A program made the translations under genes and the position numbers. 64,000 nucleotides of DNA from an uncultured delta proteobacterium (GTDB taxonomy: Bacteria > Desulfobacterota > BSN033 > UBA1163): the NCBI GenBank assembly GCA_963708295.1, contig CAVPSJ010000004.1, forward strand, positions 320,001 to 384,000, read 5' to 3'. A model generated the notes under the pieces. That model did not search any database. It was given only the letters and a program-made list of their open reading frames with translations, and was not told where the DNA came from. Below, piece by piece: positions 47,453 through 47,908 of this stretch; position 1 is the first letter of the stretch; every line of letters begins with the position of its first letter.

Positions 47453-47496
47453 TTTCCTTCCCTCCTTGGTTTTTGGGTATTTTGGTTGAAGTCATT

Positions 47497-47544
47497 ACAA
47501 AAAACAAAAAAGCCCACTGCCAGTCTCTCTCTTGGCAGCGGGCC
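47497..47544 (-). terminator. Intrinsic terminator in the met leader (attenuator)
   Basis: Minus strand GCCCGCTGCCA-AGAGAGAGAC-TGGCAGTGGGC-TTTTTTGTTTTTT, about 45 nt before metY ATG. Confidence 0.88.
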
Positions 47545-47575
47545 TTTGGGTGCCGTAATATTTATCCGATGGTGC

Positions 47576-47689
47576 TTACATGGGCGCCCCTCCCCTGTCA
47601 AGATGACGACACATGGACATGCAGCACATCATCATTGATTTGCCATCTCTTCGCTCGGAATATGCGATCTTCGACAGTCTGCCCATCAT
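47576..47689 (-). CDS. Met/Cys-rich attenuator leader peptide MMGRLSKIAYSERRDGKSMMMCCMSMCRHLDRGGAPM
   Basis: ATG ATG ATG TGC TGC ATG TCC ATG TGT control run, located between the promoter and the terminator. Confidence 0.85.
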   Translation of the reverse strand: MMGRLSKIAYSERRDGKSMMMCCMSMCRHLDRGGAPM

Positions 47690-47725
47690 TCTCACTTTTC
47701 CCAAAAAAGTCAGTCTAATTAACTC

Positions 47726-47768
47726 CCACATTGTGGTACTAATTTAACATATGAATAAATTTTGTCAA
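47726..47768 (-). promoter_or_regulatory. met operon promoter with palindromic site near +1
   Basis: TTGACA(47768-63)-16-TAAATT, followed by CCACAATGTGG (47726-47736). Confidence 0.65.
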
Positions 47769-47908
47769 GTCTTTTTTCAAAAAAATTTTGATCCCTTTCA
47801 GATGGTAAACTAAAAAACCGCATTCAAATACTCACGACACCCTGCATCCACGGGGAAAAGTTTTCCAGGTCTTCAGTTTAGAACCCCGAAGCCCACCCGT
47901 CTGGAGTA

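Follow-up and report, generated by a model that had tools for sequence, protein, structure and literature searches.

Candidate leader-peptide transcription attenuator with methionine and cysteine codons upstream of metY-metX-metW in an uncultured delta proteobacterium

We analysed the region upstream of the methionine synthesis genes metY-metX-metW in a 64,000-nt stretch of DNA from an uncultured delta proteobacterium (contig CAVPSJ010000004.1, positions 320,001 to 384,000; the whole stretch is called the window here). All features described at this locus are on the minus strand. As the initial annotation of this DNA had reported, a promoter, a short open reading frame (ORF) rich in Met and Cys codons, a terminator and the three met genes follow one another in this order, and all of them are present. 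metY and its Shine-Dalgarno sequence occupy 46154..47467 (AAGGAGG at 47467-47456, 30 nt past the terminator; ATG at 47452), and the gene encodes an O-acetylhomoserine sulfhydrylase (TIGR01326, 659 bits against a cut-off of 495; PF01053). It is followed by metX (44797-46065; NF001209 MetX, 514 bits against a cut-off of 331) and metW (44193-44807; PF07021 MetW).

The promoter is of the sigma-70 type (47741..47768), with the -35 hexamer TTGACA at 47768-47763, a 16-nt spacer and a TG-extended -10 hexamer TAAATT at 47746-47741. In a promoter scan of the window it matched the consensus at 10 of 12 positions and had TG before the -10. Of 104 related elements, 73 have a similar site 70-180 nt 5' of their third Met codon, compared with 8 of 104 shuffled controls. 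The scan detected no minus-strand promoter-like site between the terminator and the metY start, and therefore metY is probably reached by read-through. The A-rich stretch and CTTGACAAAA at the promoter (47770-47790) also matched dozens of further sites across related genomes, with 85-100% identity over 18-45 nt, and they look like the common strong-promoter consensus of this lineage, a UP-like A-tract plus a -35 element.

The leader ORF (47576..47689) has 37 codons and a TAA stop, encodes MMGRLSKIAYSERRDGKSMMMCCMSMCRHLDRGGAPM, and starts about 45 nt past the predicted transcription start. An automatic ORF list gives it as a 51-aa ORF (47576..47731); this longer start is not conserved among relatives. 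Codons 19-27 (47609..47635) read MMMCCMSMC, that is, three ATG, two TGC, then ATG, TCC, ATG and TGT, and Met or Cys stands at eight of the nine consecutive codons, as had been noticed before. Several segments of the transcript can pair in alternative ways. Segment A (47618-47635), within the codon run, is the 5' strand of a helix with segment C (47568..47582, CAUGUAAGCACCAUC), which comprises the last Met codon, the stop codon and a CAUC-type repeat after the stop. Segment B (47583..47602, CUUGACAGGGGAGGGGCGCC) covers leader codons 12-18 in the numbering of the variant cores, contains GGGAGG, and is the 5' strand of the putative antiterminator. Segment D (47533..47554) consists of GGCACCC (47554-47548) and the terminator 5' arm GCCCGCUGCCA (47543-47533), and its partner is either B or the terminator 3' arm E. 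The 3' arm UGGCAGUGGGC (47522-47512) and the U-tract UUUUUUGUUUUUUG, which is U6GU6 (47511-47498), together span 47498..47522. The terminator is an 11-bp hairpin with a 10-nt loop (-20.9 kcal/mol), and a consensus terminator scan missed it because loops in that scan were limited to 3-8 nt.

The initial annotation had based its antiterminator on the complementarity of CUUGACAGGGG in the leader with CCCGCUGCCAAG in the terminator arm. This complementarity holds in the window with one A.C mismatch and one bulged G, and it extends further, with GGGGCGCC facing GGCACCC (47554-47548); RNAduplex gave -26.0 kcal/mol for B:D. The helix between the AUG run and the post-stop CAUC repeat is a third conserved helix, which the annotation did not contain. 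RNA sequencing runs gave small shares only (0.14 or less), with contigs over parts of metY, and a 162-nt adapter-flanked record from an RNA library covers 47588-47716; these contigs carry no level, strand or 3' end and so do not speak for regulation, and stretches that they leave uncovered have no meaning.

To follow the element among relatives, 60 related genomes were searched at the DNA level and 55 genomes of the family with a covariance model (CM); the order-level set consisted of the same 55. By the DNA search, nine of the 60 genomes have this upstream region in front of metY. Similarity started at about query base 148-156, which is 7 to 1 bases 5' of the ATG run, and ran through the stop codon and the terminator. 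RNAalifold predicted four helices on an alignment of 11 copies: the AUG run with the CAUC-type repeat right after the stop (helix 1), GCAUG from codons 5-6 with the CAUGU that spans the last Met codon and the stop (helix 2), a small inner hairpin (helix 3) and the terminator (helix 4). With the CM made from this alignment, 15 of the 55 genomes gave 18 elements. By protein search metY is present in 15 of the 55, and the element precedes it in all 14 with assembled upstream sequence; in the fifteenth (G005), metY is 30 nt from the contig end. Genome G009 has the element and a metY truncated at the contig end. In G003 and G010 (L006, L007), and also at L126 and L149, two complete leader-terminator units stand in tandem before one metY, and the peptide of the upstream copy has diverged (for example, TMMCFMGMCYQNGRGGPSM). 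The metY behind the leader in G019 (L206/L207, G019:C5:50652-51948) gave two match pieces with four TGA and one TAG in the second, and is a broken or misassembled gene.

Beyond the family, we scanned with the pattern ATG-N6-ATG-N3-ATG-N17-GGGAGG-N8-TGTAR, which all 18 CM hits satisfied although the model did not demand it. Among species-representative genomes 24 loci matched, one of which (in Cohnella, within a gene) was a false positive. The remaining matches were from metagenome-assembled genomes (MAGs) of Thermodesulfobacteriota or "delta proteobacterium", five Actinomycetota MAGs (one of them named Candidatus Solincola sediminis), one Planctomycetia MAG and one unclassified bacterium; these phylum names are those of the MAG record titles, which binning could affect. 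Desulfobacterota had been suggested as the place to look. The element does recur there, but it is also present in Actinomycetota MAGs and others. In metagenomes the pattern was found in at least 119 stretches. The variant counts below rest on the matches listed, at least 175 across genomes and metagenomes, at least 125 of them unique and about 120 of the unique ones looking genuine. A hairpin of -8 kcal/mol or better with a T-run at most 116 nt past the stop was found in 110 of 125 unique matches. Five others are cut by contig ends, six have weaker hairpins, and four have no scripted hairpin, namely three false positives and L112, whose hairpin is visible by eye. The Actinomycetota versions (five MAGs) are distinct in G+C content and in terminator sequence, and the MetY proteins behind them are 78-81% identical to the window MetY. 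This high identity, together with the patchy distribution within the family, suggests that leader and metY may travel together between lineages.

The reading frame of the leader is conserved, in agreement with the earlier proposal of a small ORF. Among 106 unique variants, 104 have no stop codon in this frame for at least 12 codons 5' of the Met run (median 29 codons), against 39 and 9 of the 106 for the other two frames; the last number is low partly because ATGATG out of frame yields TGA. An in-frame start was present in 103 of the 106, and the peptides are 21-46 aa long (median 36). The N-terminal part of the leader and the DNA 5' of the Met run are variable. The leader peptide matched no family in Pfam or NCBIfam, and none of the called proteins of 28-90 aa among 5.8 billion shares words with the 51-aa form of the leader. 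The stop codon is TAA in 76 and TAG in 37 of 113 unique cores, and Cys at position 4 (101 of 113) is encoded by TGC in 63 and by TGT in 38. The open frame, the synonymous and stop variation and the lack of a peptide family thus favour a leader that is translated and unconstrained in sequence over a riboswitch or a functional peptide.

In the 18 elements found by the CM, codons 3, 6 and 8 are always Met. Met is also frequent at positions 1 and 2, which the pattern does not set (80 and 77 of 113). Besides position 4, Cys is found at position 5 in 70, at position 9 in 73 and at position 10 in 48 of the cores. The number of Met codons in the nine-codon window of the 113 variants is 3-6, with a median of 5, and that of Cys codons is 0-4, with a median of 2. 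The earlier view that Met and Cys are both control codons therefore stands in part: Met is constant, while Cys is frequent but replaceable, and 4 of the 113 variants have no Cys in the nine-codon window. GGGAGG is likewise invariant in the 18 CM hits (47576-47596 in the window, up to the stop). An 8-nt spacer separates it from the final sense codon, which is AUG or, rarely, GUG or UUG, and the stop codon follows directly. Such a spacing is optimal between a Shine-Dalgarno sequence and a start codon. The GGGAGG start-stop arrangement could keep a terminating ribosome in place or bring one in; in addition, both the inner hairpin and the antiterminator use these bases for pairing.

Covariation of the helices was measured on 104 CM-aligned sequences, one row of which is a spurious weak hit. 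The off-state structure had 92.6% of cells paired, compared with 30-50% when the partners were slid. Changes on both sides of a pair were found at 15 pairs and in 83 cells, against 7.6 pairs and 25.8 cells in shuffles, and none of 500 shuffles reached the observed values. In the A:C helices 1 and 2, 88.9% and 96.7% of cells were paired, with both-side changes at four of the eight pairs of helix 1; by eye, compensatory combinations such as AUGAUA with UAUCAU and GUG with CAC were seen. The terminator helix had 97.2% of cells paired and both-side changes at all eight pairs. For the antiterminator core (leader columns 47-53 with arm columns 120-127) 87.9% of cells were paired, against 37-53% for slid partners, and pair 48:126 is U-A in 60, C-G in 20 and U-G in 9 sequences.

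Because loop-proximal parts align poorly, we added a comparison of cognate and non-cognate duplexes with RNAduplex, in which each segment of 107 variants was tested against its own partner and against the partners of the other 106. All three helices fit their own partners better. The energies, cognate and non-cognate, were -22.3 and -18.4 kcal/mol for the antiterminator B:D, -17.6 and -14.2 kcal/mol for the terminator D:E, and -18.1 and -17.3 kcal/mol for A:C, and in each case 0 of 5000 permutations were as low. The control pairings A:D, C:D and B:C were weak (-6.6 to -10 kcal/mol); A:D and B:C had no cognate advantage among the 107 variants, and that of C:D was marginal (189 of 5000). Thus the stems covary, and the proposed pairing of the leader with the terminator 5' arm is borne out among the variants. 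The clearest case across phyla is the Actinomycetota terminator arm CCCGCAACCAGG, which faces the leader CCUGGGnGCGGG at the same codons. In Thermodesulfobacteriota the arms CCCACUACC and CCCRCUGCC face UUGGUAnGGG and UUGGCAGGGG. In many clades, inspection by eye reveals a further antiterminator helix, formed by GGUCCGCC and CGGGACC-type segments; since its registers differ, it was not counted on one alignment and enters through the duplex test only.

We modelled the position of the ribosome by blocking 28 nt around the A site and computing pairing probabilities for the 107 variants. In transcripts that end before the 3' arm, 91-95% of variants had D mostly paired with B for A-site positions on codons M1 to x7. 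The share was 85% at M8, 48% at codon 9, 0-8% from codon 10 to the last Met codon and 26% at the stop. According to this profile, the conserved Met/Cys codons fill the range of positions at which a stalled ribosome would leave the antiterminator free.

The genes behind the leaders were counted for 109 unique elements with a terminator. metY is the first gene in 90 of them and metX in one. HcyBio (PF01837, an alternative homocysteine pathway) is first in two, cysK (TIGR01139) in two, a sulfite reductase-like gene in one, and DUF2061 with PAPS (3'-phosphoadenosine 5'-phosphosulfate) reductase and siroheme genes in one. Three have DUF2292, a porin or an ABC transporter, two have DUF3034 (followed by metY-metX-metW in L065), one has an XdhC-like gene 334 nt away, one has ThiE 277 nt away, and five have too little sequence. 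Three additional leaders, which have weaker terminators and are not among the 109, also stand before sulfite reductase. In one clade the leader reads M-C-x-M-C-M-C-C (4-5 Cys), and it is found before sulfite reductase/PAPS reductase operons and before metY-metX-metW. The regulon thus takes in sulfur assimilation, Cys synthesis and Met synthesis, which fits a sensor coded by Met and Cys.

One Actinomycetota-type contig (L082) contains two leaders (7559-7612 and 10723-10776), one before cysK-pdxS (PF01680, SOR/SNZ) and the other before metY about 3 kb downstream. Small proteins are encoded directly behind the leader at L086:4713-4904, L107:3526-3735, L160:294-497, L140:3585-3806 and L065:2584-3432. 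The domain scan covered L086 for DUF2292, with L107 and L160 alike by sequence, and L065 for DUF3034, which blastx gave in L107. DUF2292, DUF2061 and DUF3034 adjoin a porin/ABC transporter, PAPS reductase or metY, and so the regulon places them in sulfur metabolism.

Directly 3' of metW in the window is a "variant radical SAM" (S-adenosylmethionine) gene (43032-44174, minus strand; NF045502, 377 bits). Homologues with 69-92% identity lie 3' of metW in 6 of the 23 loci with at least 1300 nt of room (L066, L106, L108, L110, L164 and L166), one Actinomycetota MAG included, and the gene may be an optional member of the metYXW operon. A second radical SAM gene (41882-42952, minus strand) appears frameshifted: a 356-aa ORF has Radical_SAM at residues 11-159 and an odd tail, and the SPASM domain (PF13186) is encoded in a different frame by a 130-aa ORF (41938-42330) that overlaps it. 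The gene is either a pseudogene or affected by a sequencing error. The idea that the leader is the precursor of a ribosomally synthesised and post-translationally modified peptide (RiPP), with a radical SAM/SPASM enzyme as its maturase, was rejected on gene context, since a homologue of the first radical SAM gene follows metW at 6 of 23 loci only and, in the window, a terminator and three met genes lie in between.

We propose that the element works as follows. The promoter would fire and the 37-codon leader would be translated. Segment A, which contains the Met/Cys codons, would pair with the post-stop segment C, and this helix would enclose B (codons 12-18) and help to sequester it. When charged Met-tRNA, and probably Cys-tRNA, is ample, the ribosome would reach the stop codon and cover B and C, the D:E terminator would form, and transcription would stop before metY. 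A ribosome stalled on the Met/Cys codons would instead block A:C and leave B free. Free B would pair with D once D is made, the terminator would thereby lose its 5' arm, and RNA polymerase would enter metY-metX-metW. We put the probability that the element is a ribosome-mediated (leader-peptide) transcription attenuator with Met control codons accompanied by Cys at about 0.8. The anatomy of the leader, the conservation of its frame, the co-variation of three helices, the way in which the codons are placed with respect to them and the link to sulfur amino-acid genes are observed in silico, and from them we infer translation, stalling, kinetic competition and the identity of the sensed tRNAs. 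For the sensing of Cys in addition to Met, the odds are roughly even.

Several points weigh against this attenuator. The variants are related, and thus the permutation tests overstate their independence. A Shine-Dalgarno-like 4-mer was found at only 44 of the 103 chosen starts. The three Met codons, GGGAGG and UGUAR were demanded by the pattern, so that beyond the 18 CM hits these parts are invariant by construction. The Cys codons overlap paired columns (G23.U67 and C24-G66), and therefore part of the Cys conservation may be at the RNA level. Two cysK-linked leaders (L082 and L109) have no Cys codon. In the truncated transcripts B:D formed at equilibrium in 71% of variants even without a ribosome, so the sequestration by A:C lacks a thermodynamic demonstration. 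In full-length transcripts the equilibrium switch was partial: the mean terminator probability was 0.54-0.64 with the ribosome on the Met/Cys codons (median near 0.8) and about 0.9 further on, and the mean was 0.76 without a ribosome. The terminator of the window element had a probability of 0.97 at every ribosome position at equilibrium, and its B:D occupancy on the truncated transcript dropped to about 0.3 when codons 4-10 were in the A site. Since the window terminator is stable at every position, the switch must be kinetic, with B:D formed before the 3' arm is made. The trp attenuator, in which the terminator exceeds the antiterminator in stability, is likewise assumed to be under kinetic control.

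The alternative that survives best is an attenuator with the same mechanism that senses Met-tRNA alone, in which the Cys codons are kept for the fit of the helix (UGCAUG with CAUGUA) or are drifting. The invariance of Met codons 3, 6 and 8 in the CM-found elements would be expected of it, and positions 4, 5 and 9 can also be R, S, G, Y, F, H or P. Its case is further helped by the four variants and the two cysK-linked leaders that do without Cys, by the G and C of codon 5, which are paired columns, and by codons 9-10, which are at or past the edge of the permissive stalling window. Yet Cys is kept at position 4 in 101 of 113 cores with both synonymous codons, and 70 of the 113 have U as the first base of codon 5, which lies in an unpaired column. 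The M-C-x-M-C-M-C-C clade before sulfite reductase, PAPS reductase and also metY, and the Cys and sulfur-assimilation genes of the regulon, likewise speak for a role of Cys. Sensing of Met alone is thus a real possibility, but we consider it less probable than an attenuator in which Cys takes part in some way.

Another explanation is an arrest at the stop codon, in which the peptide tail G-x-G-G-P-P-M-stop, or GGGAGG 8 nt before AUG-UAA, holds the ribosome, with or without a metabolite as in TnaC or SpeFL, and sets termination in place of tRNA charging. The combination of GGGAGG, an 8-nt spacer and (A/G/U)UG-UAR is present in 18 of 18 CM elements, which were found without the pattern; its spacing is that of a Shine-Dalgarno sequence and its start, and in the model B is covered by a ribosome that has reached the stop. 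The tail itself varies, however, at residue 17 (P66, A16, L16, M7, R5) as well as at residue 18 (P86, L13, S7). The same nucleotides are explained by the inner hairpin and the B:D pairing, and an arrest at the stop would leave the Met run and the A:C helix unexplained. We therefore regard it as distinctly improbable.

Still less probable is a riboswitch, an RNA that binds SAM, methionine or a related ligand and thereby stabilises the A:C closing helix, with an incidental ORF. The core nucleotides are highly conserved, and the layout would suit such an RNA: a long closing helix that encloses a hairpin, and then a terminator/antiterminator expression platform. Against this, an Rfam cmscan of 47300-48000 with E up to 10 found no SAM, T-box or amino-acid leader family, and so no Rfam model explains the region; it gave seven matches, all far under the gathering scores and at chance level (CRISPR-DR21, PyrG_leader, drum and others). 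Moreover, the frame is open far into non-conserved upstream sequence (104 of 106, against 39 of 106 for the better control), the stop is conserved with alternation of TAA and TAG, TGC and TGT alternate synonymously, and the conserved core is mostly AUG and UGY triplets in one frame. The least tenable explanation is a functional small peptide, a Met/Cys-rich metal binder or a RiPP precursor that the radical SAM enzymes 3' of metW would mature, with a terminator that merely ends its transcript, because, although the peptide is rich in Met and Cys, two radical SAM genes (one with a SPASM domain) follow metW in the window and a homologue of the first is found after metW at 6 of 23 loci, the gene is absent from 17 of the 23 with room, leaders also precede HcyBio, cysK and sulfite reductase operons without radical SAM genes, metY would have no promoter-like site of its own, the covarying antiterminator would have no role, and the peptide has no Pfam/NCBIfam family and a non-conserved N-terminal part.

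The leader-peptide attenuator can also be combined with the other observations into one joint reading. The element would then be the first class of Met-codon attenuators, would read both Met-tRNA and Cys-tRNA, would contain GGGAGG as a ribosome-holding module, and would travel with metY as a cassette across phyla while controlling a sulfur-assimilation regulon. The GGGAGG module would pair with the 16S anti-Shine-Dalgarno sequence of the terminating ribosome or recruit a ribosome to the start-stop site, and would thereby lock the antiterminator strand and set the basal level of termination. That all of these parts hold together is unlikely.

If the attenuator is as proposed, a missing amino acid would be added to the repertoire of classical attenuation, and AUG, the initiation codon, could act as a sensor of stalling in elongation. 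The leader would be a cis-regulatory marker for sulfur amino-acid and assimilation genes in uncultured anaerobes, including the HcyBio pathway, DUF2292, DUF2061 and DUF3034. The strong covariation and more than 100 natural variants would also make it a test bed for the kinetics of attenuation. This is apparently a widespread and undescribed class of putative attenuators for an amino acid that was thought to have none.

Methionine synthesis is known to be controlled by SAM and S-adenosylhomocysteine (SAH) riboswitches, T-boxes, MetJ, MetR, SahR and McbR. A Met-codon attenuator class is absent from Rfam 15, as judged from the scan of 47300-48000. No Met or Met/Cys leader-peptide attenuator was found in the full-text literature searched, in line with the initial annotation, which knew of none; Lopatovskaya et al. 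2010 (Mol Biol 44:128) and supplements were outside this search, and a prior mention there is possible. SAM riboswitches, Met T-boxes and the metXZ element are similar to the window element in that they are 5' leaders of metY, metX or metZ with a choice between terminator and antiterminator, but they bind a ligand or tRNA directly and have no conserved ORF. The metXZ element is a candidate RNA without an ORF in beta-proteobacteria, and a leader peptide is unmentioned in the available part of that paper (Leyn et al. 2014, PMC4239095).

Leaders with Cys codons are closer to the window element. In Actinobacteria they precede cys/cbs genes, and in the accessible text of the same study no RNA elements were reported before methionine operons in this group (Seliverstov et al. 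2005, PMC1262725). The mycobacterial polycysteine small ORFs are described, in the sections available, as leaderless, with consecutive Cys codons only, as freeing a Shine-Dalgarno sequence for translation, and with no intrinsic terminator found (10.1101/834739). On these partial accounts, such leaders and the window element share a short upstream ORF with Cys codons and the sensing of sulfur amino-acid supply by stalling (10.1101/834739, PMC1262725). Compared with the mycobacterial ORFs as described there, the window element is not leaderless, is dominated by Met, and has a covarying terminator and antiterminator (10.1101/834739).

The classical attenuators of Enterobacteria (trp, his, thr, leu, ilv and pheA) are the nearest in mechanism. 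Like them, the window element has a short leader with a run of codons for the end product, control codons in the first strand, alternative 1:2, antiterminator and terminator helices, and a terminator before the first biosynthetic gene. Rfam contains such leaders as Trp_leader, His_leader, Thr_leader, Leu_leader and Phe_leader, and no Rfam leader model matches the window element. Multi-amino-acid leaders are known for thr (Thr/Ile) and ilv (Ile/Val/Leu), and therefore dual amino-acid sensing is not new in principle. The window element differs in its control codons, which are Met plus Cys, and in its occurrence in several phyla with metY about 80% identical. Furthermore, the 5' strand of its antiterminator is in the coding region and nested in the A:C hairpin, whereas in the classical systems this strand is the 3' strand of helix 1:2. 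What is new is thus the specificity and the sequence family, and the mechanism itself is already known.

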